A stretch of DNA of 64,000 bases. It comes from Candidatus Omnitrophota bacterium. GTDB taxonomy: Bacteria > Omnitrophota > Gorgyraeia > Tantalellales > Tantalellaceae. The notes beneath the pieces were generated by a model, which worked only from the letters and a program-made list of their open reading frames with translations, searched no databases and was not told the origin of the DNA. How positions within the stretch are numbered: position 1 is the stretch's first letter; each line of letters begins with the position of its first letter. Below, one piece after another: positions 1 through 51,944 of this stretch. The stretch spans positions 64,189-128,188 of the forward strand of contig JADGBR010000004.1 in assembly GCA_015231405.1 (NCBI GenBank). The letters run 5' to 3'. The translations under genes were made by a program, and so were the position numbers.

Positions 1-423
1 GTTCCAACTCAATCCTCTACTATTGAACTGTTTTAAGATACTGTTCCATCCAACCTGTGGGACCTTATAAATATCCCCATCACCCGGAGGGTCCAATCTC
101 TTGACCATACCCTTAATAATATCCAGGCCTTCCCATGTACCGTGCTCTTCGGATGTCGTCATCAGAAGCTGCATCCCGAGACAGATACCCAGGAGCGGCT
201 TCCCCGATGAGGCGAACTCTTTTAACGGAGCGATAAGCCCTCTTTCTTTGAGATGCTTTATCCCCTCGCCAAACGCCCCTACCCCAGGCAGGATAATACT
301 TGAAGCGGCGAGAATGTCTTCCGGATCAGCGGAAACCGCAACCTGGGTCCCGACAGATTCGAACGCTCTCCGGAGATTAAACAAATTACCCAGATTATAA
401 TCGACTATGACAATATTTTTCAT
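1..423 (-). CDS. hisH: Imidazole glycerol phosphate synthase glutamine amidotransferase subunit homolog (HisH/WbuY-like). Partial: the 3' end lies outside the window
   Basis: Manual translation of the minus strand gives MKNIVIVDYNLGNLFNLRRAFESVGTQVAVSADPEDIL...GKPLLGICLGMQLL, the class-I GATase fold with the catalytic Cys in GICLGMQ. The start ATG at 421-423 is preceded by a GGAAAACAATG RBS-like stretch. It is not in the ORF track because no stop codon falls in the window. Confidence 0.8.
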   Translation of the reverse strand, partial: MKNIVIVDYNLGNLFNLRRAFESVGTQVAVSADPEDILAASSIILPGVGAFGEGIKHLKERGLIAPLKEFASSGKPLLGICLGMQLLMTTSEEHGTWEGLDIIKGMVKRLDPPGDGDIYKVPQVGWNSILKQFNSRGLSWN

Positions 424-444
424 TGTTTTCCGAGGCTATTAAGT

Positions 445-1338
445 TCATATCCTGACTTCTATCCCGTTTTTTACCATATCCTCTTTAACCTCACGAATGG
501 ATGCGGGCTTTACGGTACAAGCTCGCTCCCCCCCATACCCATGATTCAGAAAATCAACGTTCCCCGAATCTATATGTTCTCCCATACGCAGTCTAGCTTC
601 CGAAAAAGACATGAAAGGTTTATTCACGGGCGTCGCGTAGTTATAGTGGAATATTGACGCCGCCGCGGCGGCCTGCGCGCCGCCATTTCTTATGACCTTT
701 GAGAGATCGCTTTTAGTTCCTGCGCCGCCTGAGGCTATAACCGGGATACTGACGATCGAAGAGATCCTGTTTGTAAGCTCAATATCATAACCTTCCCCCA
801 TCCCTTCAGAGTTTATGGATGTCAATAGGATCTCCCCGACGCCCAGTCCTTCCACCTGTTTGGCCCATTCTATGGCGTCAAGGCCCGTAACCTCTCTACC
901 ATAATCGACCCATACCTGATATTTCCCGTCACTTATCCGGAACGCCTCTATCGAGCTTACTATGCATTGTGACCCGAACACCTTTACCGCTTCGGAAAGA
1001 AGCGCGGGATTCTCTACCGCTCCCGTATTGATCGCTACCTTATCCGCGCCTGCCCTTAATATCTGCCGGATATCCTCGATCGTCCTTATTCCTCCGGCTA
1101 CGGTAAGCGGGACAAAAACTTTCATCGCTGTCTTCTTAATTATCTCTAAAAGAGAATTTCTGCGATATAAACTGGCTACAGCGTCCTGATATATCAGCTC
1201 GTCTATCCCTTCCCTGTAATAAAGCTCCCCGAATTGCTCGGCGGTGCCAAGCACCCGGTGTCCGTCAAATTGGACGCCCTTTATCAGATTAGGCCCTTTG
1301 ATATCAAGCCTGGCTATGACTCTAACGGCATGTCCCAT
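445..1338 (-). CDS. hisF: Imidazole glycerol phosphate synthase cyclase subunit homolog (HisF/WbuZ-like) with a ~50-aa C-terminal extension
   Basis: 297 aa. It aligns along its length with HisF (GVQF, VAGGI...ADKV, SGGAG motifs). It sits 22 bp downstream of the hisH-like gene on the same strand. Confidence 0.85.
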   Translation of the reverse strand: MGHAVRVIARLDIKGPNLIKGVQFDGHRVLGTAEQFGELYYREGIDELIYQDAVASLYRRNSLLEIIKKTAMKVFVPLTVAGGIRTIEDIRQILRAGADKVAINTGAVENPALLSEAVKVFGSQCIVSSIEAFRISDGKYQVWVDYGREVTGLDAIEWAKQVEGLGVGEILLTSINSEGMGEGYDIELTNRISSIVSIPVIASGGAGTKSDLSKVIRNGGAQAAAAASIFHYNYATPVNKPFMSFSEARLRMGEHIDSGNVDFLNHGYGGERACTVKPASIREVKEDMVKNGIEVRI

Positions 1339-1364
1339 TTATCGAGCTTTATCCTCAAAGCAAA

Positions 1365-2090
1365 TTAAATATTCAATACGGAAAGATTGTTGTGAAAATT
1401 CGGCAATAATTTCAGATCCGGGGATTTTCCCATAACAAGACAATTATCGGGAATATCCTGGTTAATAATAGTTGTACCGTGAGAAACGATCACGTTATTT
1501 CCGATCTTGCAATCGCCGTAAATAGTGACATTCGCCATAATTACTACCCCGTCACCGAAAACCGGATGAATGTAATCGGCAGGGTCCTTGCCTACTATGT
1601 CGTAAGGCCCGATATGCACGTTATTGTATAAATTCAATCCAATCCCATATTTTGAATGTGAATCAATTACCGTACCTATAGGATGGCACGGTATAAAATA
1701 ATCGCCGATATCCGACCTGTAATAAATATCTACCGAGGTCCTGGCCCTCGATGAGTAGTAGATCGCTTCAGCTATATCCAGCCTTGTCCCGGCCCTGAAA
1801 AGAGCGTTAGCCACTCTTAAACAGATAATTAAATAATGGTCAAAATGTTTAAGGTCCAGCAACCCTTTCCCGCTTTGAGAAAAATACCTGTCCTTGATCC
1901 GGGAATGCTGTTCGAGCAGGCATTGATGAACGCCCTTGAAAGTAGACTTAAACTCCCCACCATCCATGTAATCATCCATTTCATATGGATGATCAGATTT
2001 GACCGTCCTGACAAAAGCCTTATAATTCCTATTCAAAATATCCTTTCCTGAACAATTCATGCTCAAAAACCCTAACTTCTGCTTTTTCAA
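1365..2090 (-). CDS. Hexapeptide-repeat (LbH) acetyltransferase, serine-acetyltransferase (CysE)-like; probable sugar O/N-acetyltransferase
   Basis: 241 aa. The C-terminal half has a left-handed beta-helix repeat pattern (NVHIGP...GDGVVIMANVTIYGDCKIGNNVIVSHGTTI). It has an N-terminal extension and an AT-rich promoter region upstream (2091-2219). Confidence 0.6.
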   Translation of the reverse strand: MKKQKLGFLSMNCSGKDILNRNYKAFVRTVKSDHPYEMDDYMDGGEFKSTFKGVHQCLLEQHSRIKDRYFSQSGKGLLDLKHFDHYLIICLRVANALFRAGTRLDIAEAIYYSSRARTSVDIYYRSDIGDYFIPCHPIGTVIDSHSKYGIGLNLYNNVHIGPYDIVGKDPADYIHPVFGDGVVIMANVTIYGDCKIGNNVIVSHGTTIINQDIPDNCLVMGKSPDLKLLPNFHNNLSVLNI

Positions 2091-2219
2091 TTATTCGTTT
2101 AGTAAGTTTTAAACAATCTAAACATCGTAACTATTTCATTTTTAATATCAATTTTTATCACATCAAATACCGATTTATTAAGGATAAATCAGCTCGGCCA
2201 AGTTATTTTATATTCTAAC

Positions 2220-3191
2220 TTACCGCATTAACGCCATTTTTGTCAACCGGTGACGCTTCTCCAGTTTGTCTATGTGCACAAAAGGATAATGCCTCGAGAA
2301 ATGATAGTTCACGAAAACAGGCTTTCCATCGATAATGTGGATATCCCTCACATCCCATGGGTAGTTATTAAATTCGACCATCTCTCCACAAGGTAATTTC
2401 TTGCTTACCCTGTTCAAACAGTAGAAAATATTATCCGTAGCGGCATATTTGCGTATATAACGGAAGTACTCTCCAACCGTGCGCATGTTCATTTCCTGCA
2501 TCGAATTTATGTTCACAGAGAGGGTATATTCGACCGAATCTATTTTTTCGTAATGTTCAGCCGGGCAATATATAAGGTCCGAAACTTCCAGCCTGTCTTT
2601 ATCAACTACTCCTTCTTCCACGCCATAATGGCTGGCTTGGGGAAAAAAAAGCTGCATATTAACGGATTGGTAAAGCAATACTTTCCCGATATCGACTAGT
2701 ATTATCCGGGCATTCGGATATGCGGTCTTCAACAATAGAGATGTTATTCCGGGGCCATCACCTATTATTAAAATACTGAACTTGGCGGCTATATCCATTT
2801 TGAGATGTTTTTTTATAAGAGTGACGGCGCAGACTTGCTTGAAAACCTCATTAGTAAGGGCATATCCTTTTTCTTGAAGTAGCTGATATGCCTTTATGGT
2901 TTCCCTGAAATGCGACAACGGGTCCTCCAACCGAAAGAAATAAGTAAATACGCATAGATAGCTCAGGATCCTATTAATGATATTAAGTTTGAGGCTAGGC
3001 AAACCAGAAGACCTAAGAGATAGAATCCCGGTCCTCACATCATGATCCGCCTGTAACTTAGCGCCATAGATCTTCCAATGAGAAGAAATATGGGCCTCTG
3101 GGTCCATATTAGTCGCGGAGAAATATCGTTTCAGTAAAAATAAGACATAATTTTTCTCAACCAGCTCAGTGGTCTTTATCTTTAATTCCAT
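2220..3191 (-). CDS. Hypothetical protein, possible sugar O-methyltransferase-like (Rossmann G-rich motif LIIGDGPG)
   Basis: 323 aa. It has a glycine-rich loop resembling a SAM/nucleotide-binding motif. There is no other recognisable signature. Confidence 0.35.
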   Translation of the reverse strand: MELKIKTTELVEKNYVLFLLKRYFSATNMDPEAHISSHWKIYGAKLQADHDVRTGILSLRSSGLPSLKLNIINRILSYLCVFTYFFRLEDPLSHFRETIKAYQLLQEKGYALTNEVFKQVCAVTLIKKHLKMDIAAKFSILIIGDGPGITSLLLKTAYPNARIILVDIGKVLLYQSVNMQLFFPQASHYGVEEGVVDKDRLEVSDLIYCPAEHYEKIDSVEYTLSVNINSMQEMNMRTVGEYFRYIRKYAATDNIFYCLNRVSKKLPCGEMVEFNNYPWDVRDIHIIDGKPVFVNYHFSRHYPFVHIDKLEKRHRLTKMALMR

Positions 3192-3206
3192 AATGAGATC
3201 CTAATA

Positions 3207-3914
3207 TTATTTTTTATCTCTACCACGGGAGGCCAACAAGTGTATTTTTCTCATAGCGTAATACGGCAAACGCAACAACCTGTTAAATATCGGGTCATTG
3301 ATTCCGTGATAGACGGTACCGCCTCCAAGCCTTTCAATGGACTTCAATATGACCTCCCTGTCTCCCATAAATGGTTTGTTGCTATTTTTCCGATAACAGG
3401 GGCAAACTAAGCCATTGATATCCCGCAACAAGATAAGCGTATAATCGTTATATTTTACGAGCATATCCACGAATCCAACCGAGTAAAAGTTATTGCAGTG
3501 TCCTTTCCATTTCCCGGTTTCCTGAAAAGCTTTGATATCCGGCAGAAAATGGATGGCGATGCCTCCTGTTTTGAGGCAATCGTGGACGTTCTTGAAACAT
3601 GTATATTGCGCTTCGTAGGGTTCAACGTGTTCTAAAGTACCCGCGTTTGTAACAATGTCGAATTGGCTTAACCATTCAGGCTTTTTTATGGGCTTGGATA
3701 GATCAACTTTCAAGGCGCCGCGGCGGCCGTTGAGGTCGAAGGAGGTGTGGATGACTCCTCTATTAGTAAAATATTCTTTACCCGTTTTCTCCGGGATACC
3801 CTCGCCGGACACTTCCTGGTCGCCGAGCTCAAGCATTTTTTTGCCTCTTAAGTCGCCTATGCTCATGGCAGCGCATTCTAATATGTATTCCAGATATGGT
3901 TTTTTTAAGCCCAT
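3207..3914 (-). CDS. Class I SAM-dependent methyltransferase
   Basis: Motif I LELGDQ and a post-I acidic residue are present. The start is placed at the internal Met MGLKKPY because its ATG overlaps the upstream gene's TAA stop (TAATG), which is classic translational coupling. The 263-aa track ORF begins further upstream inside the neighbouring gene. Confidence 0.6.
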   Translation of the reverse strand: MGLKKPYLEYILECAAMSIGDLRGKKMLELGDQEVSGEGIPEKTGKEYFTNRGVIHTSFDLNGRRGALKVDLSKPIKKPEWLSQFDIVTNAGTLEHVEPYEAQYTCFKNVHDCLKTGGIAIHFLPDIKAFQETGKWKGHCNNFYSVGFVDMLVKYNDYTLILLRDINGLVCPCYRKNSNKPFMGDREVILKSIERLGGGTVYHGINDPIFNRLLRLPYYAMRKIHLLASRGRDKK

Positions 3915-5479
3915 TATCTCTTCTCCATATTTTTGAACATTTCGTTGACCTTTTCGGGCAGGAACATCTTCATTCTGTATTTCCTTTCGGCCGTCCATTT
4001 CCTTTCCTCAACAGAAAAACCCTCAAAAAGGTAGGCTTTGAAGGTCAAGGGGTGCGGGGATGAAGAAGCAAGGACCAGGCCTTTCGGGTCCTCTAATGGA
4101 AAATGGTCTTTCTTTATAGGAGACAAGAAATTCGTGTTGACGAGGAGCATAAGATCGTGGCCGGGACCGGTTTCCCATTGTTTGCCGGTCTCGTCTATCC
4201 TGGTTATCCGTTCTCTGGGGCAGTTTTTAGTATTCTTGTAAATGAAATATCGCGGATACTCTAAATCGAAATAGGCGCGGAAAAATATCAGGAAAGAGAT
4301 AATTGAGGTCCCCGCGACCGTCCAAACAGCTAACCTCCTCACACCCGGCAAAGAGATTTCCTTTATCGCCAAGACGAGAGCGATCACAAGCATCGGGATG
4401 TAAAAATGTATAAGCCTGCCGTAAAACACCACTTTATTGAAGAAGACACCCAGGATGCCGTGATAAAGATACAGGATAAGCGCGGCGGTTATGACGCTTT
4501 TATCGGGAGTGAATTTAAGAATATCTTTTCGTGTGCGGGATATCACATAGGCGAGAAAGCCGCATATAAGGATAGCACCCGCCGGTCCCTCGACCTGGAG
4601 AAGATATTTAACGATAAATACAAGGCTTTCGCTGAAAGTCCCCTGGGTGGCTGTTCCGCTGAGCTGAGCGAGATCGGCTAAATAGGGACGCCCGGCTATC
4701 CGCGAGATCACCTCGGTTATCGAAATAACACAACCGGCGGAAACAAAATATACCAGTATGCCGGGCAATATTCTGTCTTTAAGCAAAATGAAAACTATCC
4801 CGAAGAACGCTAAAATATTGCAGTAACCCGGATAGACCAGGAACGATAACGCGCTTAAAATACCGCATAACGCGTAGATCGATATCCCGGGTTCTTTGAC
4901 GGCCCTGACCCTGAGATACAGATACAGCGCAAGAAAAAAAATGGAAATAGCCATATCGTACGGGAAAATATGACGCAAATAAATATTTGAGTTACAGAGA
5001 AGAGCATACACTCCCGCGCCCAGGAATGATATCCTCCTTTCCCCGGAGAGCACGAAGATGATCCTGTAAAACAAGTAAAGCGCCCCGACAGAGACCGCCA
5101 CGTTAAAAAAACTGACGACACAAGGGAAATGATAACCGTACGGCGTTATAAGCCGCAGTTTTACGAGCAGTTGCTGCACTGCCGCTATCGGGATACAAGC
5201 GGCGATGAACCCGGGCCTTCCCTGGGAGTGGAACATATTGTAAAACGCGTCCCGAAAATGCCCATCTACCAGGGCCCCATACGCCTTATAAACCATATTG
5301 TACCTGAATTCGTCCGGAAAGAAGAACTGGCCTTTGTTTATTAGCGACAACCGAAGCAGAAACACGACCAGCAATAGAACAAATGTAAGAGAACCCCTAA
5401 CGAAAGGTTTCTGAAATGATATCATAATTCTATTTCGCTTCATAAAGGCCTTGGCAATTGCCCCATAAAATCTCGCCAT
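3914..5479 (-). CDS. Polytopic membrane glycosyltransferase, GT-C fold (ArnT/PMT-like, GT39/GT83-type)
   Basis: 521 aa and more than 10 predicted TM helices. FFFPDEFRY (a DE motif) lies in the first predicted periplasmic loop, and the C-terminal ~100 aa is soluble. The start is possibly at M19 (5425) rather than 5479, which would avoid overlap with the next gene. Confidence 0.55.
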   Translation of the reverse strand: MARFYGAIAKAFMKRNRIMISFQKPFVRGSLTFVLLLVVFLLRLSLINKGQFFFPDEFRYNMVYKAYGALVDGHFRDAFYNMFHSQGRPGFIAACIPIAAVQQLLVKLRLITPYGYHFPCVVSFFNVAVSVGALYLFYRIIFVLSGERRISFLGAGVYALLCNSNIYLRHIFPYDMAISIFFLALYLYLRVRAVKEPGISIYALCGILSALSFLVYPGYCNILAFFGIVFILLKDRILPGILVYFVSAGCVISITEVISRIAGRPYLADLAQLSGTATQGTFSESLVFIVKYLLQVEGPAGAILICGFLAYVISRTRKDILKFTPDKSVITAALILYLYHGILGVFFNKVVFYGRLIHFYIPMLVIALVLAIKEISLPGVRRLAVWTVAGTSIISFLIFFRAYFDLEYPRYFIYKNTKNCPRERITRIDETGKQWETGPGHDLMLLVNTNFLSPIKKDHFPLEDPKGLVLASSSPHPLTFKAYLFEGFSVEERKWTAERKYRMKMFLPEKVNEMFKNMEKR

Positions 5480-6600
5480 GGCAGGAATTCTATTTTTTCA
5501 TACTTATAGGGGCGAGGCGTAAAGCAAACACAGATAGCCCTTGTATGGCCATGGTCGCTGATAAAACTTCTAAGCCCCCTGACATCGCTTAAACGCGGCT
5601 CCCCCGAGGCCTTTATCTCGACAGCCCAGATCTCATCCCTGAACTCCAAGATCATATCTATTTCAGCCCCGTCCGATGTCCTAAAAAAACTCATCTTTGA
5701 CGCCGCCTCCGAGTAGTCAAGTATCCTTTTCGTTTCGACCATAATAAAATGCTCGAATGCCCTGCCATAGGGAGGAGTTCCCGCGACCAATCCGCTATAG
5801 ATGACATTTTTCAAACAGGCAACTATCCCGCAATCAAAAAAGTAAAACTTCGGATGGGACACTATTTTAGTCCGGCTTGATCTGCCATAAGGGTATATAA
5901 AAAAACCCAGCAGGGTATCTTCCAGGATCTGAAAATATTCTTTGATGGTCTTTGAATGAACGCCCACTTCACGGGCCAAACTCTGGTAATTGATCAGATT
6001 GCCGTTCTCATAAGCCGCCAACTCCTGGAACCTGGCGAAAGCCGGTATGTTCCTGATCAACGCTTCCTGGGTCACCTCTTCATTAAGATAAGTCTCAATA
6101 TAGCTTTTTAACAGCCGTATTTTATCTTCTCCTTTCTTTTCCAGGGCTATCTTGGGCAATGTTCCGAAAAGAAGAGCGTCTTCCAGAATAAAACCATCCC
6201 CCAGTTCCATATGCGTAAAAGGATAAAGATGTATCGTAATGGCCCTCCCTCCCAACAGGTTCGCGCCTGATCTCTTAAGTTTACGGGCACTTGATCCGGT
6301 CAAAATAAATTTCATCTTTGGTTTTTCTTCCATAAGTAACTGAACCTCATCCAGGAGCCCGGGTAAACGTTGGATCTCATCGATAACGATCAATCCCTCC
6401 TCTATATTTAACGCCCTTACTTCCCCGGAAAGCAAGGATACATCCCTGGCATATCGCATAAACTCGCTATGTTTAAGAAGATCGATAAAAATAACAGGAG
6501 ATAGGGTATTTTTTATTAAATACGTTTTTCCGGTCTGGCGAGGACCAAGTAGAAATAATGAGTGTTTGTATTTTTCTAGGCAGATTGTTCGTTGAGTCAT
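5440..6600 (-). CDS. AAA+ ATPase with DUF4143 C-terminal domain
   Basis: 386 aa. Walker A GPRQTGKT and Walker B VIDEIQ are present. The architecture is that of the widespread 'ATPase (AAA+ superfamily), DUF4143' proteins. Confidence 0.8.
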   Translation of the reverse strand: MTQRTICLEKYKHSLFLLGPRQTGKTYLIKNTLSPVIFIDLLKHSEFMRYARDVSLLSGEVRALNIEEGLIVIDEIQRLPGLLDEVQLLMEEKPKMKFILTGSSARKLKRSGANLLGGRAITIHLYPFTHMELGDGFILEDALLFGTLPKIALEKKGEDKIRLLKSYIETYLNEEVTQEALIRNIPAFARFQELAAYENGNLINYQSLAREVGVHSKTIKEYFQILEDTLLGFFIYPYGRSSRTKIVSHPKFYFFDCGIVACLKNVIYSGLVAGTPPYGRAFEHFIMVETKRILDYSEAASKMSFFRTSDGAEIDMILEFRDEIWAVEIKASGEPRLSDVRGLRSFISDHGHTRAICVCFTPRPYKYEKIEFLPWRDFMGQLPRPL

Positions 6601-6646
6601 ATATCAATAATACACGTAATTATTGGAATGTCAACCATTATTTACG

Positions 6647-7753
6647 TCATTTAAGCGATTTAGTCACTATGTCGTATATCCATCCTGCGATATATTGATT
6701 GCCTGTTCCGGTGTAATGGCCTTCGGAGTACGCGAACGAAAGGACCCCGGGCTTAAGAAAGAATTTGTCGATCTCTTCCTTAGACAGGTTCCTTAAAGGC
6801 GGCACGAGATCGATAAACGTAATACCATAAGAGGCTAATTTATCTTTAAGCAAAGCCCTCCATACGTCGGATCCGCTGCCATTAACATCCTGATATACGG
6901 GCAAATATACCACGTATAGCTTTGAGTTTCCAATTTTATCCAGCTCTTCGAAAAGTTTCAGCACCATTCCCTCGGCGGATTCAGGGGTGTCATATATTGT
7001 TACACTGGCTTTCTTGATCGCGTCAGTTTTAGGGAAAAAATGTCTGTGGATATCTTTCAAAAGCTTGAATGATCTTAATTCCCACATTATCCACAGATTA
7101 CGCGATAACCATGGGAATGAATACCATTTTTTGGGGACAGGGACGTTCTCTACCGCCAGTTCATTATTAACGAGCCTCAAAACCGGTTTCCCATAGCGCT
7201 GAAAAGTTTTCCACTGGGTCCTTCTGATGTCGTCTGTTATGAAAGCGAAAATATGGATGTCATGGTCGTATTTAACGCCGTCTTCCTCATACCACAGGTA
7301 TGACTGGTCGATGCCATAACCGCACTGGCCCATGTTGATAATTTCGAGACCCGGATCTATTTTTTCCATTAAAGACGGCCAGGTATCGTTATTCGCGACC
7401 CCGTAACCGAAAGTAAAAGAATCACCGGAACAAATTATTCTTTTTTTACCCGAGGGGATCTCTTTAGAGTATTCCTTATCCGCCCTGATCGATCCGGAAT
7501 TGATAGTTACATCATTGCCCGGGCCGAACATATCCGCGATATGCGTGTTCGGTATACTTTTCCAGCCTAAAAGGCTGTCATATCTGGTGTATAGCCTATC
7601 GGCTAAAGGGGGTTTGGCATTACAGGCTATGTCCCTAATGAACAGCACCAGGCTGGAAGTGCCTTCAAATAGGATAAAGATCGCGACAAAGACCAGAATT
7701 AAGAGCGCTATATTCCCTGCAGCTCTTTTTATTATCCCCATTGTTATCCTCAC
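6647..7753 (-). CDS. Membrane-anchored SGNH/GDSL hydrolase family protein
   Basis: 368 aa. It has an N-terminal TM helix, then the SGNH block I ICSGDSFTFGYG, and a later DxxH-like region. Confidence 0.6.
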   Translation of the reverse strand: MRITMGIIKRAAGNIALLILVFVAIFILFEGTSSLVLFIRDIACNAKPPLADRLYTRYDSLLGWKSIPNTHIADMFGPGNDVTINSGSIRADKEYSKEIPSGKKRIICSGDSFTFGYGVANNDTWPSLMEKIDPGLEIINMGQCGYGIDQSYLWYEEDGVKYDHDIHIFAFITDDIRRTQWKTFQRYGKPVLRLVNNELAVENVPVPKKWYSFPWLSRNLWIMWELRSFKLLKDIHRHFFPKTDAIKKASVTIYDTPESAEGMVLKLFEELDKIGNSKLYVVYLPVYQDVNGSGSDVWRALLKDKLASYGITFIDLVPPLRNLSKEEIDKFFLKPGVLSFAYSEGHYTGTGNQYIAGWIYDIVTKSLK

Positions 7754-7761
7754 TCTACTTT

Positions 7762-9363: not shown

Positions 9364-9370
9364 GTTATTC

Positions 9371-9399
9371 TTGCCAATTTTCCGAAATTACGATATATT
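9371..9399 (+). promoter_or_regulatory. Sigma70-like promoter TTGCCA-17-TATATT; near-leaderless mRNA for the GT2 gene at 9411
   Basis: The -35 box is at 9371-9376 and the -10 box at 9394-9399. The predicted TSS is about 5 nt before the ATG. The region also serves the divergent GT-C gene. Confidence 0.45.
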
Positions 9400-9410
9400 C
9401 CATCTACCTT

Positions 9411-40219: not shown

Positions 40220-40227
40220 GGCGGTTC

Positions 40228-42688
<2,461 letters not shown>

Positions 42689-42781
42689 CTATATCCTCCT
42701 TACTATTTTAAATAGTAGCTCCTCCATTAAAAATCCCGCGCCCCGACATCGCGAACCCCGGGAAGCGGGGTGAAGCGATCT

Positions 42782-43786: not shown

Positions 43787-43802
43787 AAGTCAGCCCTCGG
43801 AT

Positions 43803-44913: not shown

Positions 44914-45657
44914 CTAAACAGGTTTTTTCGCCACACAGAAAACCGACGATCCGAAGGGAAACGTAACCCTTAACAATAATTCATTCTCCAGGAACAACAC
45001 GCCTTTCAGCATATCGTTAATAAAACCTGGTAATCTGTTCAACCCGGCGATGTTCTTTTTATGACAGAACGGGAATACCCTCTCCAATAACCGGCCTGCC
45101 AGAAGGACGGGAAACAGCAGCGAATCCCTGTAAGTTATCCTTTCAATGGCGAACCCGGCGTTAAGTACCTTCATTTTTACCTCACCCAGGGTATACCTGT
45201 GCTTCGCGTGAACAAGCTCATCGTGTTTCGCGGTCAGAAAAGAGAATGCCGGGACGTTGACTATAAATAACCCGCCGTCAGTCATGACCCTGAATATTTC
45301 CGACAATGCCGCCATATCGTCCCCTACATCCCTGTGGTACAACACACCCATCGAAACTACAACTCCGAAACTCGAACTTTTAAAAGGCAGCCCCGATACC
45401 GACGCCCGGGCAAGCCGCGTCAAATTCCTTTTTTTGCAGAAACGAAGCGCTTCGGACGATATATCGACCCCGTATGCCTCGCGCCTCCCTAAGGAAGCGA
45501 GCAGCCCACCCGTCCCGCACCCGGCGTCAAGGAGCTTTGTTCCGTACCAATTTCCGCAATATCCCTCCAAGGTCCTCGAAAGGAACCTTTTCTGGGCTTC
45601 ATACCACCAGTACGAATCCTCAAGCTCATACATTTTAGCGTATTCCGGTATTTCCAT
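44914..45657 (-). CDS. Class I SAM-dependent methyltransferase
   Basis: Start is at MEIPEYAKMYELED. Motif I is LLDAGCGTGGL. The track ORF extends to 45786 and would overlap the upstream gene. Confidence 0.7.
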   Translation of the reverse strand: MEIPEYAKMYELEDSYWWYEAQKRFLSRTLEGYCGNWYGTKLLDAGCGTGGLLASLGRREAYGVDISSEALRFCKKRNLTRLARASVSGLPFKSSSFGVVVSMGVLYHRDVGDDMAALSEIFRVMTDGGLFIVNVPAFSFLTAKHDELVHAKHRYTLGEVKMKVLNAGFAIERITYRDSLLFPVLLAGRLLERVFPFCHKKNIAGLNRLPGFINDMLKGVLFLENELLLRVTFPFGSSVFCVAKKPV

Positions 45658-46585
45658 CCCTCTCCCCGTGCAACCCCCTAACGACGTACTGGGGCGTCTG
45701 GTTGTTATATAGGAACAACCTTCCGATATATTCCCCCAGGAGGCCCAGCGTAAGGAGCTGTATACCGGAAAAGACCATGATGGCAATGATCAAGGACGGG
45801 TACCCCACGACCAGCCCGGGGTTTTTTATCTTTTCCGTGATAACGACCCCGCTGAATACCACCCCGAGCACGCTTAGGAAAATACCGAGAAAAGTACTTA
45901 TCCTCAACGGGTTGATAGAAAAATTCACGAACATGTTCAGCCATAAAAGGAAAAGTTTCCGTAATGTATACCCCGACCCGCCCGAATAACGGTCCTCATG
46001 GCGCACCTTTACCCGGCCGATATTGTTCGTGCACCTCAATATCAACCCATCTATGTAAGGGAAAGGCCCCCTGTACTTTATTATCTCGCCGGCCACGAAA
46101 CGGCTTACGCATTTGAAACTGGATAAATACAGGTCCTTCGGCTTATCCATCACCAGGTTCGCCACAAAATGGTTAAACCTGCTGCCAAGGTTCCTGGCCC
46201 ATGAATGTTTCTTCTCATCGTACTGGACATAAACAACGTCTAAAGACCCAGCCAGCGCTTTATCGAAGAGGATGGGAACTTCTTCCGGGGGATTTTGGAA
46301 GTCATCGTCCATTATAACCACGTTATCCCCGGTAACGTGGTTAAGCCCGGCCATTACGGCGTTATGCTCCCCGAAATTCTTCGAAAGCTCCAGGTACATG
46401 ACCGAGCCTTTATATTTCCCGGCCAGGGCCAGGCACGCCCCATGGCTGTTATCCCGGCTGCCGTCGTTCACAAGGATGATCTCAACGCCCTGTTTCCCGA
46501 GTATCTCTATAAGCTTATCCACAAGCATGGTTATTGTCTTTTCTCCGTTATATACGGGTATTACCAAGGATCGCTTAATATCCAT
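45635..46585 (-). CDS. GT2-family polyprenyl-phosphate sugar synthase (ArnC/GtrB/DPM1-like), second copy
   Basis: 316 aa. Motifs: LVIPVYNGE, ILVNDGSRD and a DxD in VIMDDDFQ. The C-terminus has two TM helices. Confidence 0.8.
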   Translation of the reverse strand: MDIKRSLVIPVYNGEKTITMLVDKLIEILGKQGVEIILVNDGSRDNSHGACLALAGKYKGSVMYLELSKNFGEHNAVMAGLNHVTGDNVVIMDDDFQNPPEEVPILFDKALAGSLDVVYVQYDEKKHSWARNLGSRFNHFVANLVMDKPKDLYLSSFKCVSRFVAGEIIKYRGPFPYIDGLILRCTNNIGRVKVRHEDRYSGGSGYTLRKLFLLWLNMFVNFSINPLRISTFLGIFLSVLGVVFSGVVITEKIKNPGLVVGYPSLIIAIMVFSGIQLLTLGLLGEYIGRLFLYNNQTPQYVVRGLHGERDGNTGIR

Positions 46586-46950
46586 TTTTTCTCCCGATAG
46601 AGTTGAACAAAGCCGAAATATCCTTTGACAAAGGGTTATACCTCATGAAAATATCCAGGAATTTAAACGGCAAAGTGAAAAGCATCATGATGCCCAGCAG
46701 GATATTCCGCAGGCGTTCGTTCCCGAAAGACAGAATGATGGCCACCCATCCCTGGAATACCCATAGTCGGGCGGCTGTTCACCCCCAGCCCCATTATCCC
46801 GAACCCCTGGATCCACATTATCACGCGGAAAAACAACGGCATTTATCACATCGGCCTGGACCCGGGTATTACCGGACCCGAGGTTCATGAAAACCCCTTC
46901 TTTCCCATTTAAGGATATCATACTCATCGCGGGGAATAAAGCCCGCCTGT

Positions 46951-47943
46951 TTAAAATCTTTTCCTGACATACCTTCCAACCTTGCGCAAACTGACACCAC
47001 GGTTCGGGAAACCGCATATCTCATTCAAAACTTCTCCCGCGACCCTAATGACGGACGCTTCACCGGCGCTGACGTACTTGAAACCCTCATAGGGGCACGT
47101 GCAGTCTATAAGGGGGCACGGGGCGGGTGTTTTGTCGGGTGTGTACTTCCCTTTAAGAAGGTTGCCGTATCTCTTGTACGAGCTCGAGCAGCGGTAGAGG
47201 TTGCCGGAGGGGTCCATGCGGAAATAATCCATCCCCGTCCGGCATGGGTTTCCGAAATAATTGACGCTCGTGTTCATGACCTTCTCTTCCCGGGGATCGA
47301 GGGAGTATTTATAGATGAACTCTTTTTCCTCGCGGGTAAAAGCGGCCGGATATTTTTTGCCGTTATGGTATCCCCTGAAAGTCTTGGCGTTAACGAGCTT
47401 GATCCCGCGAGATTTCAGGTATTTTACGTCCAGGGCCATTTTTTCCAATAGACGGGGGTATGTCAGATATCCTACATCGATATTGAAACCTTTCTCCTGG
47501 AGGATGAGCACCTTTTCAATAAAATGATCTATGCCGGCAGGATTTTTCTCTCGCGCGGTTTTATGGAACCCGGCGTTCAGGAAAACGACCTTATCGGGCG
47601 ATATCCTGTTAGCGAATTCCCTGACGTTCAAGGTCGAAAGATTGGTATTAAGAGATATGAAGTGCCCTTTCGTCAGCTCGGCGCAAAGATCGACGAATTT
47701 CGGGTAAAGGAACGGCTCGCCGCCCGACATGTGTACCTGCCAGACCTTACCGGTATCGTTAAAACACCCGGCGATATGAGCGGGACCGTATTTGCCGCAA
47801 TCGGGATGCTCCTTCGACAGTTTCTCCTCGCCGCAAAAACAGTACTCGCAACGGAAATTGCACAGGTTATTAAGCTGCCAGAAGACCATGCTGTCCGGCC
47901 GTTTACCGCTCGTACCCTTAATATCCCTTGTAAAGTCGCTCAT
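46951..47943 (-). CDS. Radical SAM protein with SPASM-like C-terminal Cys cluster (anSME/BtrN-like architecture)
   Basis: Start is at MSDFTRDIKG. WQLNNLCNFRCEYCF (CxxxCxxC) is near the N-terminus. The C-terminus has CRTGMDY...CPLIDCTCPYEG. The track ORF extends to 48018. Confidence 0.7.
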   Translation of the reverse strand: MSDFTRDIKGTSGKRPDSMVFWQLNNLCNFRCEYCFCGEEKLSKEHPDCGKYGPAHIAGCFNDTGKVWQVHMSGGEPFLYPKFVDLCAELTKGHFISLNTNLSTLNVREFANRISPDKVVFLNAGFHKTAREKNPAGIDHFIEKVLILQEKGFNIDVGYLTYPRLLEKMALDVKYLKSRGIKLVNAKTFRGYHNGKKYPAAFTREEKEFIYKYSLDPREEKVMNTSVNYFGNPCRTGMDYFRMDPSGNLYRCSSSYKRYGNLLKGKYTPDKTPAPCPLIDCTCPYEGFKYVSAGEASVIRVAGEVLNEICGFPNRGVSLRKVGRYVRKRF

Positions 47944-47944
47944 A

Positions 47945-49570
47945 TTAAGATCTGTCCGAATACACCACGAATTCCCCTTCGGGGTATCTGAACGCTTTCC
48001 TTTCGTATTTACCGGCATTGAACCATGCTTCTGACCCTAGAAGGAAATCCTTTTCGAGCCCGGGGAAGACGGCTATTGTCTTTATATTCTCGGGGTCCTT
48101 GATATCCTTGAGCCATCTTCCCGTGTATCTCGTTTTGGCCTCTTCTTTCAGCCTTCGGGTCTCGGCCTTATCCACAAAAACGCGATCGGTGAAAATGAAC
48201 ATGTAATACAGGTTCTCCCCGGAGATCTGCCCGTAATGGGATAGATATACCGGCATCGTAAAAGAGGCTTCGCAGTTAATAACAGGGTCCACGACCGCCA
48301 GGATCCTGTCTTTTACCCCGGCGGTTCTTATGATCTCTTTCAAAAAGGCGTTAGTCTGCTTACCTTCGTCAGCAAGATATTTCACGCGGAAATATCCATA
48401 GCCCAGGCGCGGTATGAACATCAGGAATACCAGGGTAAAAAAAACCAGTTTTGAGAACACGGTTACCCTTTTATCTTTCCTTATCCGCCGGATCAGATAG
48501 ACCACCATAAAAGCCGTGCCCAGGAACGCCGGCAATAGGAACCTGTGGACGAGCCCGGTCTTGTTGTAGAGCGCCATCTCGGGGATCAATATCAGTAGAA
48601 ATAGGGTTAAAGCCTTAAAGGTATCAGTCCCGAATATCTTTTTAACGGAAAGCGCGTCTATTTTCCTTTTATCCCCGAAATAGGACTCGCCCACGATGAA
48701 TACGCCGAAGAATATCACAAGGACAGGGATTAGCTCGATAAGATCCAGCAGGAACAATTTGAATTCACGCGCAGCGAAAAGAGGATTTCTTATCATCATC
48801 GCAAGAAAAGTACCCTCACCAAAACCGGCCATCGATTCCTTGTGGATATCTACGTAATGTCTGATGATGTAAATATCGAACGCCAGTATCGAGAATAACA
48901 CCGCGGCGGCGGTGATATTACCCGCGGCAGCGCGAATAAATGGAACATTATCCCTTTTTGAACACAGCCATACCTTCCAGAAAAAGAACGCCGGAACGAT
49001 CACAATGAAACTCTCCTTACACAGTGATGAGATGAAAAGCATGGATAAAGATATGACGCCATACGCCTTCCCTCCCGAGCGCACCCCTTTAGCCATAAAA
49101 AAAAGGGCCCCCGAGAAAAATACCATACCTATCGACTCCGCCACGCCCAGCCGCCACCAGATGGGGACCTGCTGCCCAATAAGCGTCAAAAAAGAAAAAA
49201 ACAGCGATTCGGCCGCATCGTATCCCATAGCGCGCATAAAAAGGAAGAGGAAATACGCGCAAACGACAGCCAAAAAGGTATGGTAGACATAAAACAGTTT
49301 GAAATTATCCCCGAACGATCGGATCTCCAGGAACCTGTGCAGGTTCCTGAACGGCCTAAACCTTATATGTTCCTTAAAGATCTCATCCAATACGCTTTTT
49401 TTGGCTCCGGCAAGAAAGCCCGTGCCATTATTCCCCCGAGCGCCTGAAAGTATCTGAGAATCATCCTTAAAATGGAACCCGGAACCCAATGTTCCGCTAA
49501 TAATGAGCAAACCGGAGTAAAACGATACTATAAACAATAAAACCAGCAGATTCGTCCTCATAGTTAGCAC
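47945..49570 (-). CDS. Polytopic membrane protein, probable GT-C-type glycosyltransferase
   Basis: 541 aa and about 12 TM helices. FKDDSQIL (an acidic pair) follows TM1. The C-terminal ~130 aa is soluble. Confidence 0.4.
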   Translation of the reverse strand: MLTMRTNLLVLLFIVSFYSGLLIISGTLGSGFHFKDDSQILSGARGNNGTGFLAGAKKSVLDEIFKEHIRFRPFRNLHRFLEIRSFGDNFKLFYVYHTFLAVVCAYFLFLFMRAMGYDAAESLFFSFLTLIGQQVPIWWRLGVAESIGMVFFSGALFFMAKGVRSGGKAYGVISLSMLFISSLCKESFIVIVPAFFFWKVWLCSKRDNVPFIRAAAGNITAAAVLFSILAFDIYIIRHYVDIHKESMAGFGEGTFLAMMIRNPLFAAREFKLFLLDLIELIPVLVIFFGVFIVGESYFGDKRKIDALSVKKIFGTDTFKALTLFLLILIPEMALYNKTGLVHRFLLPAFLGTAFMVVYLIRRIRKDKRVTVFSKLVFFTLVFLMFIPRLGYGYFRVKYLADEGKQTNAFLKEIIRTAGVKDRILAVVDPVINCEASFTMPVYLSHYGQISGENLYYMFIFTDRVFVDKAETRRLKEEAKTRYTGRWLKDIKDPENIKTIAVFPGLEKDFLLGSEAWFNAGKYERKAFRYPEGEFVVYSDRS

Positions 49571-49703
49571 ATTTTTAACACTTTTAATTTACTGTGTCAA
49601 TAGCCTGTGTCGCTATAATTAATAATGGAAAGACATAGTCTGAACATTAACATTTACAAATGCCGGCCAAACGTGGATAATTAGTCCGGAGGGGGGTCCA
49701 TCT

Positions 49704-50774
49704 ATGGTCAATATCGGGGTCATAGGCTTCGGATACTGGGGTCCGAACCTTGTAAGAAATTTCACGCATCATCCAAAATGCTCGGTCAAAAGGATAGCTG
49801 ACCAGTCGGAAGCCCGCCTCGCTACCGCCCAGAAGATGTACCCTTTTATCCAGACCACGACGGACATGTACAGGGTACTCGATGACCCCGGGATACAGGG
49901 CGTCGTGATCGCCACTCCTATCAACACGCATTACCGTATCGCTAAGGAAGCTCTTTTACGCGGCAAGCACGTGCTGGTCGAAAAGCCGCTGACAAACTCG
50001 AGAGCCCACGCCCTCGAACTCATCAAAATAGCCAAAGAAAAAGACCTGCGGCTCATGGTGGACCATATCTACCTCTATAACGGGGCGATAAGGAAGATAA
50101 AAGAGATCATTTCCAAAGGCGAGCTCGGGAAAATACAGTATTTCGATTCCATAAGGGTCAATCTGGGCCTTATACAGAACGACTCGAACGTCCTATGGGA
50201 CCTCGCGGTGCACGACCTGTCGATCTTGAATTTTCTGGTGGAAGAGAAGCCTTCGAGCCTCATCGCGACGGGCGTATCGCATACGATGAACAATATCGAG
50301 AATATCGCCTATATCACGCTCAACTACAGTTCAGGCATGATAACGCATATCAACTGCTCGTGGATCTCGCCCGTCAAGATACGCATGATACTCATCGGCG
50401 GAACAAAAAAAATGATAGTCTACAACGACGTCGAGCCGACGGAGAAGGTCAAGCTCTACGACACTAACTACCAGATAATCGAAAGGGAAAAAACCCTGGT
50501 CGATTATAGGATCGGGGATATCTATATACCAAAATTCGACCAGACCGAGGCTTTAAAGAACGTCGCCGACGATTTTATAGACTCTATCATCGAAGGGCGA
50601 GAACCTTTCTCTAACGGTAAAAGCGCTTACGATACCATCGATATCCTGGAAGCCGCACAGGAGTCCATAAAAAAGAACGGCAAAGAGGTGTTCCTTGATG
50701 GAAACAGTCAATATCGAGAACCCAAGGCAGCTGGTAAAGAACGTAAAGCTCGGAACAAACGTAGTGCTGCGTGA
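49704..50774 (+). CDS. Gfo/Idh/MocA-family NAD-dependent sugar oxidoreductase (WbpB-like)
   Basis: 356 aa. MVNIGVIGFGYWGPNLVRNF is the Rossmann N-terminus. GGAGG RBS sits 8 nt upstream. The 3' end overlaps the next gene. Confidence 0.85.
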   Translation: MVNIGVIGFGYWGPNLVRNFTHHPKCSVKRIADQSEARLATAQKMYPFIQTTTDMYRVLDDPGIQGVVIATPINTHYRIAKEALLRGKHVLVEKPLTNSRAHALELIKIAKEKDLRLMVDHIYLYNGAIRKIKEIISKGELGKIQYFDSIRVNLGLIQNDSNVLWDLAVHDLSILNFLVEEKPSSLIATGVSHTMNNIENIAYITLNYSSGMITHINCSWISPVKIRMILIGGTKKMIVYNDVEPTEKVKLYDTNYQIIEREKTLVDYRIGDIYIPKFDQTEALKNVADDFIDSIIEGREPFSNGKSAYDTIDILEAAQESIKKNGKEVFLDGNSQYREPKAAGKERKARNKRSAA

Positions 50775-51225
50775 GTTCATAAACCTTTACGGCTGTAGGA
50801 TCGGCGACAATTCCCGTGTGGGTACTTTCGTCGAGATACAAAAGAACTCGAGCGTCGGAAAGAACTGCAAGATACAAAGCCACTCCTTCATTTGCGAAGG
50901 GGTGGATATCATGGATAACGTATTCATCGGGCATAACGTTTCCTTCATCAACGACAAATACCCGAGATCCGTCAACCCCGACGGGACGCTCATGAACGAC
51001 GCGGACTGGAGCGTCTCTAAAACCCTAGTCGGGAAAGGCGCCTCTATCGGCACCAGCGCCACGATACTCTCGGGCGTCACCATAGGCGAGAATTCCATTA
51101 TCGGGGCGGGTTCTGTCGTCACCAAAGACATTCCGGCCAACGTGATAGCGGCCGGTAACCCCGCCAGGGTATTAAGGACCGTCGGAGGGAAAAGCCTTCC
51201 CGAGCGCGGCAAAAGGGTATCATGA
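50698..51225 (+). CDS. Hexapeptide-repeat N-acetyltransferase (WbpD-like)
   Basis: It has LbH repeats (...IGDNSRVGTFVEIQKNSSVGKNCKIQSHSFICEGVDIMDNVFIGHNVSF...) and ends with the typical ...AAGNPARVLR. Confidence 0.8.
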   Translation: METVNIENPRQLVKNVKLGTNVVLREFINLYGCRIGDNSRVGTFVEIQKNSSVGKNCKIQSHSFICEGVDIMDNVFIGHNVSFINDKYPRSVNPDGTLMNDADWSVSKTLVGKGASIGTSATILSGVTIGENSIIGAGSVVTKDIPANVIAAGNPARVLRTVGGKSLPERGKRVS

Positions 51226-51944
51226 TAAGCGGCGCCGGGCTCAGCGTTATTATACCCGTATACAACGAGAAGGAACTTCTCGCCCCGGCGATCAAAAGAT
51301 CAATGGATGCCCTCTCTTCAGGGTTCAGCGATTACGAGCTGATCATCGTCAACGACGGCTCCGACGCCTCAGGCACCCTCGAATTGAAGAGGGCCGCGGG
51401 TATCTACCCGGGCATAAAGGTCATAAACAACGACGTCAACCTGAACCTGGGCATATCGATACAGCGCGGGTTCATGGCGGCCTCTAAGGACCATATTCTC
51501 TTCAATTCAATTGACCTGCCTCTAGCTCCGGAAGATTATCCGGCCCTTATAGAAAAAGCGCGCGGCCTGGATATGCTCATACTCCAGAGAGAGGTTTACG
51601 CGGGGGCGTCCCTCTGGAGAAAGATCACATCTCGATCGAACCTCTTCTTAATTAAAACTCTTTTCCCAGTCGCCTCGCGCGGCATCAGAGATCTCAATTA
51701 CACGTTCATTTTCAGGCGCGATATCCGCTCGAAAATAATGCCGGTATCGAAAAGTCCCGCGTTCACCCAGCCCGAAATGATACTCCGGGCGATCTACAAT
51801 AAATTGAAAGTGCAAGTTGTCACCGTCCCCTACCACCCCCGCACCGCCGGTAAAGCTTCTTTAGGCAAACCGCATGACATCATCTGGTCGATGTACGATA
51901 TGTTACGATTCAGGGTTATGGCGTTCAGGCGTTTTTTGAGATAG
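51222..51944 (+). CDS. GT2-family glycosyltransferase
   Basis: 240 aa. Motifs: SVIIPVYNEKE, LIIVNDGSD and SIDLPL. The start overlaps the upstream stop (ATGA). Confidence 0.7.
   Translation: MISGAGLSVIIPVYNEKELLAPAIKRSMDALSSGFSDYELIIVNDGSDASGTLELKRAAGIYPGIKVINNDVNLNLGISIQRGFMAASKDHILFNSIDLPLAPEDYPALIEKARGLDMLILQREVYAGASLWRKITSRSNLFLIKTLFPVASRGIRDLNYTFIFRRDIRSKIMPVSKSPAFTQPEMILRAIYNKLKVQVVTVPYHPRTAGKASLGKPHDIIWSMYDMLRFRVMAFRRFLR

Follow-up and report, generated by a model that had tools for sequence, protein, structure and literature searches.

The window analysed here, a 64-kb (64,000-nucleotide) stretch of contig JADGBR010000004.1 from an uncultured Candidatus Omnitrophica bacterium, raises the question of what the dense block of glycan genes at positions 1–51944 would assemble, and on which face of the membrane. 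Open reading frame (ORF) calling and Pfam scans, run in six batches over 60 ORFs across the window with matches counted at E ≤ 0.001, gave an unbroken run of sugar-nucleotide, glycosyltransferase (GT) and tailoring genes that extends from the left edge as far as 51944, bearing out the proposal of an earlier note on this DNA that the region is a heavily tailored surface-glycan locus of about 52 kb. We conclude that the block is a real gene island, very large and in essence ordinary, for making and extensively modifying a sugar chain of the cell surface, and we put at about 60% the probability that it is a mosaic island for one, possibly two, lipid-carrier-linked cell-surface glycans. NCBIfam bit scores were compared with equivalog cutoffs, a score below cutoff being read as family-level similarity only; no curated equivalog family includes the block, which fits known kinds of glycan locus. 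Genes are labeled g plus their start coordinate (g7762 is the gene starting at 7762), coordinates are collected in Table 1, and all results cover the window. The block holds 47 credible genes, in agreement with the earlier count of more than 45; their supposed common direction did not hold, with just 38 of the 47 (~81%, counting the truncated leftmost gene) on the minus strand and nine on the plus strand (starts at 9411, 10662, 10912, 32331, 39191, 40228, 49704, 50695 and 51222). ORFs 35320–35703 and 46685–47017 were dropped from the gene list, as their composition looks non-coding. Nearly all of the earlier family calls survived tests with hidden Markov models (HMMs), with no broad reassignment of glycosyltransferases. 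Archaeal-type matches (AglJ, Agl23, AglZ-like) occur among the window proteins; an archaeal origin was nevertheless set aside, since three of these proteins have 100%-identical NCBI entries assigned to Candidatus Omnitrophica (locus tags HQL30_035xx–037xx). Rfam and tRNA scans of the window were empty, and promoter and terminator scans gave no signal above shuffles.

The question of the membrane face turns first on four polytopic proteins, each with a D-E or D-D pair immediately after its first transmembrane (TM) helix, TM1, that had been called GT-C enzymes. For g3914 and g7762 the assignment comes from AlphaFold2 (AF2) models (predicted local distance difference test, pLDDT, in Table 1) searched with Foldseek. 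The top 19, high-probability matches of g3914 were all GT-C proteins (ALG9/12, STT3, DPY19, PglB, PimE, Pmt, AftA/AftD), as were the top 34 PDB matches of g7762, where ArnT (5ezm) came first and PglB, AglB, Pmt4, ALG9/12, STT3, Emb, AftA and DPY19 were also matched. In homologue alignments the acidic pair is invariant in both families (D56-E57 after TM1 for g3914, D54-E55 for g7762). The g7762 family is large, with at least 4885 database matches at E ≤ 0.001; these are called 'hypothetical protein' wherever they are named, and among the 120 listed a precomputed Pfam domain is present in only one. g40228, with ~10 TM helices and the motif CDEVVEY after TM1, is the only one of the four that matches PMT_2 significantly. 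A profile search with g47945 collected 1316 representatives; among 52 sampled family members four match PMT_2 (best E 2e-7) and one matches Wzy_C, and D36-D37 is near-invariant in the family. The presence of four GT-C enzymes is thus supported, firmly for three (g3914 and g7762 through AlphaFold/Foldseek, g40228 through Pfam PMT_2) and indirectly for g47945, through relatives that match PMT_2. The stacking in one locus of four GT-C genes from families with no detectable sequence relationship to one another is unusual, and three of these families are unannotated in Pfam despite their GT-C folds or GT-C links.

The donors for such enzymes would be supplied by GT2 proteins, of which Pfam recovered all five that had been proposed (9411, 11617, 19912, 45635 and 51222). 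Two had been called ArnC/DPM1-like, and both indeed carry C-terminal TM helices: g45635, ArnC/PgfS-like with two such helices, gave full-length alignments with PgfS at 158 bits and ArnC at 154 bits, and g9411, AglJ/dolichyl-P-hexose-transferase-like, scored 137 bits against AglJ and 90 bits against Dol-P-hexose transferase, all under the equivalog cutoffs. Each lies close to a GT-C gene, g9411 as the divergent neighbour of g7762 and g45635 in one minus-strand run with g47945. Taken together, GT2 proteins resembling polyprenyl-P-sugar synthases and four GT-C proteins with an acidic motif imply that some glycosylation steps very probably take place at the periplasmic face from polyprenyl-P-monosaccharide donors. 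Bulk assembly is more likely cytoplasmic, because at least six soluble Leloir-type glycosyltransferases share the block with a PglK-like flippase; the earlier proposal of periplasmic-face assembly therefore stands for some GT-C steps and not as the main mode. Among the other transferases, the CgeB-like enzyme was recovered by Pfam as a Glyco_trans_1_2 protein in the 14990–20808 run, and the proposed GT-A+GT4 fusion was confirmed in its C-terminal GT4 domain, whereas its N-terminal GT-A-like motif YLDADLL was seen by eye only and had no HMM match. g21790, which has a single HP dipeptide at residue 245 and no Pfam, NCBIfam or PDB sequence match, has a homologue (34.5% identity) directly after NeuB in a metagenome contig (L088), and is a candidate nonulosonic-acid transferase. 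Searches of the PDB, by sequence and by profile, found nothing for the membrane proteins, for g21790 or g35994, or for the N-terminal half of the 831-aa glycosyltransferase.

The flippase itself is a single polypeptide with fused transmembrane and nucleotide-binding domains (TMD-NBD). It had been proposed as an MsbA-type exporter; its best curated match is PglK (330 bits over the full length), followed by MsbA (275) and HepA (260). Wzk, a PglK homologue, replaces Wzx in LPS synthesis of Helicobacter pylori, flipping the O-antigen precursor in a pathway that has neither Wzx/Wzy nor Wzm/Wzt (PMC2841628), and by analogy a Wzk-like role is plausible for this exporter. Canonical assembly machinery was not found beside it: none of the 60 ORFs matched Wzx (Polysacc_synt), Wzy, PCP/Wzz, OPX/Wza or an initiating phosphoglycosyltransferase, and STT3, Wzy_C, Bac_transf and Glycos_transf_4, covering ligase or oligosaccharyltransferase and initiator, had no match in the window. 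A small lipid-sugar flippase of the GtrA, ArnE/F or MATE type had no Pfam match in the scanned ORFs either, the extra TM helices of g9411 giving no GtrA match, and the 365-nt gap at 46586–46950 held no convincing membrane ORF. Because the locus runs off the left edge, where a HisH-like gene is cut, these absences hold for the window and not necessarily for the whole locus; the earlier statement that Wzx, Wzy, Wzz and Wza are missing is right for HMM scans of the window and cannot be asserted of the locus.

The cut at the left edge is also what favors a different account, in which the block would be the variable section of an otherwise conventional locus for O-antigen or capsule, with Wzx/Wzy or Wzm/Wzt, initiator and chain-length or export genes just to the left of the window, and with the exporter and GT-C enzymes as accessories. 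WbuY/WbuZ, gmd/fcl and NeuABC genes are typical O-antigen content, and all three modules are present here. Homologues of g47945 and g7762, moreover, reside in canonical loci: a g47945 relative lies inside a WecA/Wzx/Wzy_C locus (L081), a g7762 relative lies inside a Wzm/Wzt locus with Wzt_C (L089), and in L084 a g47945-like GT-C stands, together with an ArnC-like GT2, a methyltransferase and a small membrane protein of the TMEM234 type, beside an ABC-2 (Wzm/Wzt-like) pair. Against this account, a PglK-like flippase in the center of the block would be redundant with Wzx, and the 64 kb contain no canonical machinery. The one ABC-2 permease/ATPase pair of the window (ABC2_membrane + ABC_tran, 59847–61395) lies 8 kb past the block behind unrelated genes, matches DrrA/DrrB, GldA and NodI best and is without a Wzt C-terminal (Wzt_C) domain. 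It was set aside as a Wzm/Wzt candidate and is to all appearances unrelated to the glycan block; it does not amount to the canonical O-antigen ABC export genes that would have refuted the earlier reading, with some residual chance that this pair serves export. The pair, then a minus-strand DUF5674 gene and a small family-less ORF (together 59141–61395), are located upstream of a 934-aa ResIII helicase gene. On balance we regard a conventional O-antigen or capsule locus as unlikely, though far from negligible.

The same comparisons address whether the GT2/GT-C modules mark a special pathway. L088 repeats the order of the window for a four-gene module, GT(A)+GT4, GT2, GT-C and SGNH-like, at 49, 63, 46 and 50% identity, the window copy being split by the plus-strand GT2 gene g9411 and a toxin–antitoxin pair. 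A g7762 relative adjoins a GT2 with a GT2_TM_C domain in a further context (P0114), so that pairing of GT2 with GT-C recurs in L084, the P0114 context and L088. Because GT-C homologues are found in ordinary Wzx/Wzy and Wzm/Wzt loci, these modules alone are no sign of an unusual pathway; they are portable decoration cassettes that occur in conventional polysaccharide loci. The earlier inference of protein O-glycosylation or lipid A/LPS-core decoration was for this reason an over-reading, as the GT-C homologues occur in WecA/Wzx/Wzy_C and Wzm/Wzt loci as well.

A general protein O-glycosylation island, serving an S-layer, pilin or adhesin, with one or more GT-C enzymes acting directly on protein in the manner of PMT, should nevertheless be weighed. 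One GT-C is of the PMT_2 type, and PgfS, the best named match of the ArnC-like GT2, belongs to a streptococcal protein-glycosylation machinery. A relative of g7762 (L085, GT-C at 8001–9581) lies in a cassette of epimerase, GT2, epimerase and GT-C between genes for a TpsA exoprotein and a TpsB transporter, an arrangement that suggests that a two-partner-secreted protein is possibly glycosylated and that speaks for protein as acceptor. In Tannerella forsythia, protein O-glycans are encoded by clusters in which genes for nonulosonic acids and methyltransferases abound (PMC6120980), and the S-layer O-glycan of Kuenenia is heavily methylated (PMC5088730). On the other side, the window encodes no PglL/Wzy_C-type O-oligosaccharyltransferase and no obvious target protein, other GT-C enzymes of the same families sit in polysaccharide loci, and the acceptor is not readable from sequence. 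We consider protein O-glycosylation as the function of the whole block rather improbable.

Which sugars would enter the chain is indicated by several precursor modules. The proposed HisH/HisF-like pair was found: the WbuZ/HisF-like protein scored 263 bits against NCBIfam WbuZ, slightly under the cutoff of 299.7, and the truncated gene that adjoins and pairs with it has a HisH-like translation (MKNIVIVDYNLGNL...GICLGMQLL), begins near 432 and stays open to position 1 on the minus strand. The NeuABC-like enzymes were likewise recovered, NeuC above its cutoff (402 bits, cutoff 236), NeuB at its cutoff (390 bits, cutoff 399.65, also Pfam NeuB + SAF) and a CTP_transf_3/PseF-like CMP-transferase (143 bits), beside an aminotransferase of the LegC family (221 bits). 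The set of NeuC, NeuB and CMP-nonulosonic acid synthetase is complete and is predicted to make a CMP-nonulosonic acid of the Neu/Leg type. The proposed GDP-fucose pathway is represented by gmd (Pfam GDP_Man_Dehyd, 515 bits) and an fcl-like short-chain dehydrogenase/reductase (SDR) gene; the latter product scored 262 bits against NCBIfam Fcl (cutoff 500) and could make a GDP-6-deoxyhexose other than fucose. A WbpB/WbpD-like pair was seen as a GFO/IDH/MocA 3-dehydrogenase-like gene and a left-handed β-helix (LbH) gene, and the ArnB/ArnA-like enzymes as two DegT aminotransferases and one 4,6-dehydratase-like SDR, g38133, which scored only 45.6 bits against ArnA. Formyl_trans, polysaccharide deacetylase and EamA/ArnE-type families had no Pfam match among the 60 ORFs. 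With no formyltransferase or deformylase match, the Arn-type lipid A pathway in the block, judged by predicted gene content, is incomplete.

Tailoring functions are equally abundant. The expected five to six methyltransferases are accounted for by genes at 2220, 16512, 32331, 39191, 44914 and possibly 3207; g2220 scored 55 bits against TIGR04371 (cutoff 44), the methyltransferase of the 14990–20808 run 61 bits against TIGR04325, and g3207 matched Methyltransf_11 at E 0.0036. Both LbH proteins, both SGNH proteins (one weak) and a sulfotransferase, weak at 23.9 bits, were found as predicted. The enzyme called CysQ is a 3'(2'),5'-bisphosphate (PAP) phosphatase as the call implies, of the HAL2 type instead (291 bits, cutoff 267).

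All five radical SAM (rSAM) proteins of the earlier inventory were present, three with a B12-binding domain, one with SPASM and one of another type. The B12-rSAMs of the 14990–20808 run show generic NCBIfam similarity to HpnJ, PhpK and BchE, far under the cutoffs. It is unusual that a glycan locus carries five radical SAM genes, one of them within a nonulosonic acid operon. Radical SAM tailoring of sugars has been characterised for aminoglycoside and phosphonate natural products, and we know of no such characterisation for bacterial envelope glycans. The five proteins may carry out radical chemistry (C-methylation, epimerisation or deoxygenation) on nucleotide-, CMP- or lipid-linked sugars of surface glycans, which together with the four GT-C enzymes would represent a new anaerobic style of glycan diversification among uncultured lineages; we put this forward as a speculative and rather doubtful proposal. 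The rSAM/SPASM gene (26573–27655) sits between the CMP-nonulosonic acid synthetase and NeuC genes. No homologue of it was found in the fetched loci L034 and L035, which hold NeuA/NeuB/NeuC homologues, or L079, which holds NeuA and NeuB. Homologues of the B12-rSAMs are encoded in an unclassified archaeal metagenome-assembled genome (MAG; L051, ~700–7670), a Woesearchaeota MAG (L079, 3460–5644) and L088 (14081–15520), where they adjoin nonulosonic-acid, cytidylyltransferase or gmd genes. The data hint that the association of B12-rSAMs with glycan loci recurs in uncultured lineages.

Aminoglycoside clusters, too, typically contain B12-rSAM methylases, DegT aminotransferases, GFO/IDH/MocA oxidoreductases and an ABC exporter. 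Gentamicin methyltransferases serve as an example (PMC5819394), and the block might on these grounds be taken to make a glycosylated natural product for secretion, either aminoglycoside-like or a glycolipid, instead of a surface glycoconjugate. This is highly improbable: no cyclitol synthase, polyketide synthase or nonribosomal peptide synthetase match was obtained, and the four GT-C enzymes, the GT2 proteins resembling polyprenyl-P-sugar synthases, NeuABC and WbuY/Z point to lipid-linked envelope glycans.

Whether the block is one unit bears on how many glycans it would produce. Genes in the first 35 kb have a GC content of 0.41–0.51 and a third-position GC content (GC3) of 0.46–0.63, whereas genes at 36–52 kb have a GC3 of 0.58–0.69, like the 52–64 kb flank (mean 0.63). 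The GC3 step at ~35.5 kb coincides with a 779-nt gap holding the first of two copies of an element resembling a miniature inverted-repeat transposable element (MITE). The block may be composite, and only its left ~35 kb is compositionally atypical; the description of the block as an accessory island would, by composition, suit the 1–35 kb part, where GC and GC3 lie below the flank, but not 36–52 kb. The interspersed elements invoked for that description are real: an AAA_14/DUF4143 ATPase, an MNT/HepT pair (with a GSxxxG...SDIDI motif seen by eye in the gene at 10662–11009) and the two MITE-like copies. The latter, 220–275 nt long, carry TTCAGTTGYGG...CCRYAACTGAA as terminal inverted repeats and, internally, the long inverted repeats GTCATTGCGAGGAG and CGACGAAGCAATCCC, and bracket the 36–52 kb half together with a LOG-family gene (52128–52970).

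These features suit a reading of at least two independent, adjacent clusters, a low-GC and possibly acquired one at 1–35 kb (nonulosonic acid, ABC exporter) and one of native composition at 36–52 kb (GDP-fucose, ArnC-like, GT-C). The right part is indistinguishable in GC3 from the 52–64 kb flank, the MITE-like element and gap fall exactly at the junction, and modules of the block recur separately in other genomes. Such independence is harder to reconcile with the fact that both parts hold partial pathways, neither with an initiator or ligase and with the exporter in the left one only, and that both carry like tailoring enzymes (rSAM, methyltransferase, GT-C). We view two or more separate clusters as possible, on the doubtful side.

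Comparison across genomes offered little to locate the borders. A scan with gmd returned 80 loci without synteny beyond gmd-fcl and generic nonulosonic acid genes, the best match at 74% identity in Elusimicrobia being followed by Brocadiaceae and other Planctomycetota at 68–69%. A search with the helicase of the flank found relatives at 32–38% identity only, and the orphan protein g2220 had no match when GTDB genomes and JGI metagenomes were scanned by pattern. Because no close relative was found, the borders of the island are not definable by synteny. Population-variable polysaccharide cassettes are described from complete Omnitrophota genomes (bioRxiv 10.64898/2026.06.07.730766), and they fit the reading of the block as a variable surface-glycan island.

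From gene content and GT-C folds, which are observed, we infer a pathway for the preferred mosaic island (its step order, flipped substrate, donors and acceptor). Activated sugars would be made in the cytoplasm: GDP-6-deoxyhexose or fucose, CMP-nonulosonic acid, and amino/acetamido and acetamidino sugars. From these, soluble Leloir GT-A and GT-B enzymes would build an oligosaccharide on undecaprenyl (pyro)phosphate at the cytoplasmic face, where it would be started by an initiating phosphoglycosyltransferase that is presumably encoded outside the window, and the PglK/Wzk-like ABC protein would flip the lipid-linked oligosaccharide. ArnC-like GT2 enzymes would make polyprenyl-P-monosaccharides, from which the GT-C enzymes would add side sugars at the periplasmic face, and membrane-anchored SGNH proteins may handle O-acetyl groups outside the cytoplasm. 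Further diversity of the product would come from methylation, radical SAM chemistry and sulfation dependent on 3'-phosphoadenosine-5'-phosphosulfate (PAPS), with the HAL2-type phosphatase removing PAP. Finally, a ligase or oligosaccharyltransferase, likewise placed outside the window, would attach the glycan to its acceptor, either lipid A-core or a protein of the surface, for example an S-layer or pilus subunit. Several observations weigh against this pathway. The exporter, at 330 bits, is far under the PglK equivalog cutoff of 1000; an initiator, a ligase or oligosaccharyltransferase, an outer-membrane export component and a small lipid-sugar flippase were not detected in the window by family searches; profile-profile comparison gave no significant link between the three GT-C families that lack a Pfam model; the call of g47945 as a putative GT-C rests indirectly on PMT_2 matches in its family; and sequence does not decide between one glycan and several, GC3 differing between the two halves.

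Table 1. Genes and elements of the 64-kb window, with the evidence for each assignment
Positions	Strand	Feature	Basis
1–432	-	HisH/WbuY-like glutamine amidotransferase, 5' part	Translation, off left edge
445–1338	-	WbuZ/HisF-like cyclase subunit (sugar acetamidino/amidation module)	Pfam His_biosynth E 1.5e-59
1365–2090	-	LbH acetyltransferase (CysE/WcaB-like)	Pfam Hexapep; NCBIfam EpsC/CysE/WcaB similarity
2220–3998	-	Two methyltransferase-like genes: NanM-type sugar O-methyltransferase (2220–3191), weak (3207–3998)	TIGR04371, Methyltransf_11
3914–5479	-	GT-C fold glycosyltransferase, Pfam-less family	AF2 pLDDT 90.3, Foldseek
5440–6600	-	AAA_14 + DUF4143 ATPase, interspersed, not a glycan enzyme	Pfam
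6647–9363	-	GT-C glycosyltransferase (7762–9363), then membrane-anchored SGNH-like protein (6647–7753)	AF2 pLDDT 85.9, Foldseek
9411–10568	+	GT2, four C-terminal TM helices, AglJ/dolichyl-P-hexose-transferase-like	Pfam GT2 E 1.7e-32, TM profile
10662–11370	+	MNT/HepT-type toxin–antitoxin pair	NTase_sub_bind E 2e-35, HepT-like
11617–14914	-	Soluble GT2 (11617–12396); 831-aa protein with C-terminal GT4 half (12419–14914)	Pfam
14990–20808	-	B12-rSAM, methyltransferase, CgeB-like GT, B12-rSAM, GT2	Pfam
20766–22803	-	Two family-less soluble proteins; 21790–22803 candidate nonulosonic-acid transferase	No Pfam/NCBIfam match
22811–24610	-	Fused TMD-NBD ABC exporter, PglK/MsbA/HepA-like, 599 aa	Pfam ABC_membrane + ABC_tran
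24621–29839	-	CMP-nonulosonic acid module: LegC-like aminotransferase, CMP-transferase, rSAM/SPASM, NeuC, NeuB	Pfam, NCBIfam
29974–35214	mixed	B12-rSAM, weak sulfotransferase, FkbM methyltransferase (+ strand), TM-anchored SGNH protein, papain-like C1 peptidase	Pfam, TM profile
35704–35978		MITE-like element copy 1, at GC step between block halves	Direct + inverted repeats
35994–39116	-	Family-less 361-aa repeat protein, DegT aminotransferase, SDR 4,6-dehydratase-like protein	Pfam, NCBIfam
39191–41751	+	SAM methyltransferase and PMT_2-type GT-C glycosyltransferase	Pfam PMT_2 E 2.6e-9 (g40228)
41738–44867	-	fcl-like gene, HAL2-type PAP phosphatase, gmd	Pfam, NCBIfam
44914–49570	-	Operon-like run: GT-C candidate (47945–49570), rSAM (46951–48018), ArnC/PgfS-like GT2 (45635–46585), methyltransferase (44914–45786)	Pfam/NCBIfam/TM profile
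49704–51944	+	UDP-GlcNAc 3-dehydrogenase-like oxidoreductase, LbH N-acetyltransferase-like protein, soluble GT2	Pfam, NCBIfam
52987–53207		MITE-like element copy 2, just past right end of block	Direct + inverted repeats
beyond 51944		Right flank: LOG-family gene, sulfatase, response regulator, ResIII helicase, DUF5674, ABC-2 pair, rubrerythrin, histidine kinase	

Three further genes deserve mention. A papain-family peptidase gene (34474–35214; Peptidase_C1, E 2e-17), whose product has no predicted TM segment, stands at the end of the low-GC half. Past the junction, the 361-aa product of 35994–37079 has no family match and by eye consists of ~45-aa repeats with a recurring G-x-W; it is apparently β-strand-rich and ends in ...GVAWRW. 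In the right flank, the sulfatase gene at 53233–54894 contains one 30-nt unit in threefold tandem in both orientations (54033–54128 and 54680–54760), each time in frame, giving EASEDRPSFA three times right after the N-terminal anchor and ESLSSEALAK three times within the sulfatase domain. The unit has the look of a mobile repeat that coding sequence tolerates.

Current concepts of glycan assembly are left unchanged by this block, the value of which is that of a catalogue and a source of candidate enzymes. It provides an extensive inventory of envelope-glycan chemistry for a phylum of which hardly any members have been cultured, stacks four-fold in one island the GT2 + GT-C periplasmic decoration modules known from pathogens, and adds radical SAM enzymes as possible glycan tailoring enzymes.

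Set beside known systems, the block resembles several in part. With the Arn pathway (ArnB/A/C/D/T/E/F), which attaches 4-amino-4-deoxy-L-arabinose (L-Ara4N) to lipid A, it shares an ArnB-like aminotransferase, an SDR, an ArnC-like GT2 and ArnT-like GT-C enzymes, and it differs in having no formyltransferase, deformylase or ArnE/F match, scores far under the cutoffs and no arn operon order. With PglK, of Campylobacter jejuni N-glycosylation, and Wzk it has in common a single-polypeptide TMD-NBD exporter in a glycan block without Wzx in the window, although this exporter scores one third of the PglK cutoff and genes for PglB, WaaL and WecA/PglC are not in the window. O-antigen loci for nonulosonic and acetamidino sugars (NeuABC/Leg; WbuX/WbuY/WbuZ, Escherichia coli O145-type) share NeuC, NeuB, a CMP-transferase, a LegC-like protein, and WbuZ/HisF- and HisH-like proteins with the block, in which the O145-type WbuX amidotransferase is not visible and presumably lies off the window; the block departs from them in the rSAM/SPASM gene between CMP-transferase and NeuC and in three B12-rSAM genes nearby. 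No O-oligosaccharyltransferase or target protein was identified in the block to match the general protein O-glycosylation cluster of T. forsythia (PMC6120980) and the methylated S-layer O-glycan of the PVC (Planctomycetes, Verrucomicrobia, Chlamydiae) bacterium Kuenenia (PMC5088730), to which it is otherwise akin as a large locus that combines nonulosonic acid synthesis with several glycosyltransferases and methyltransferases and that belongs to a PVC-related lineage with documented methylated surface glycans. Three-component glycan decoration by GT2, flippase and GT-C is widespread (PMC11127046, PMC8035078), as in GtrA/GtrB/Gtr(type) for the O antigens of Shigella and Salmonella, CsbB/GtcA/YfhO for teichoic acids and Citrobacter GT136. 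While the block differs from these systems in its four GT-C enzymes of unrelated families and in that no GtrA-, MATE- or ArnE/F-type flippase was detected, it resembles them in an ArnC/GtrB-type GT2 beside a polytopic GT-C, an acidic motif in the first external loop of the GT-C, its glycan-locus setting and a pairing that is kept in other genomes.

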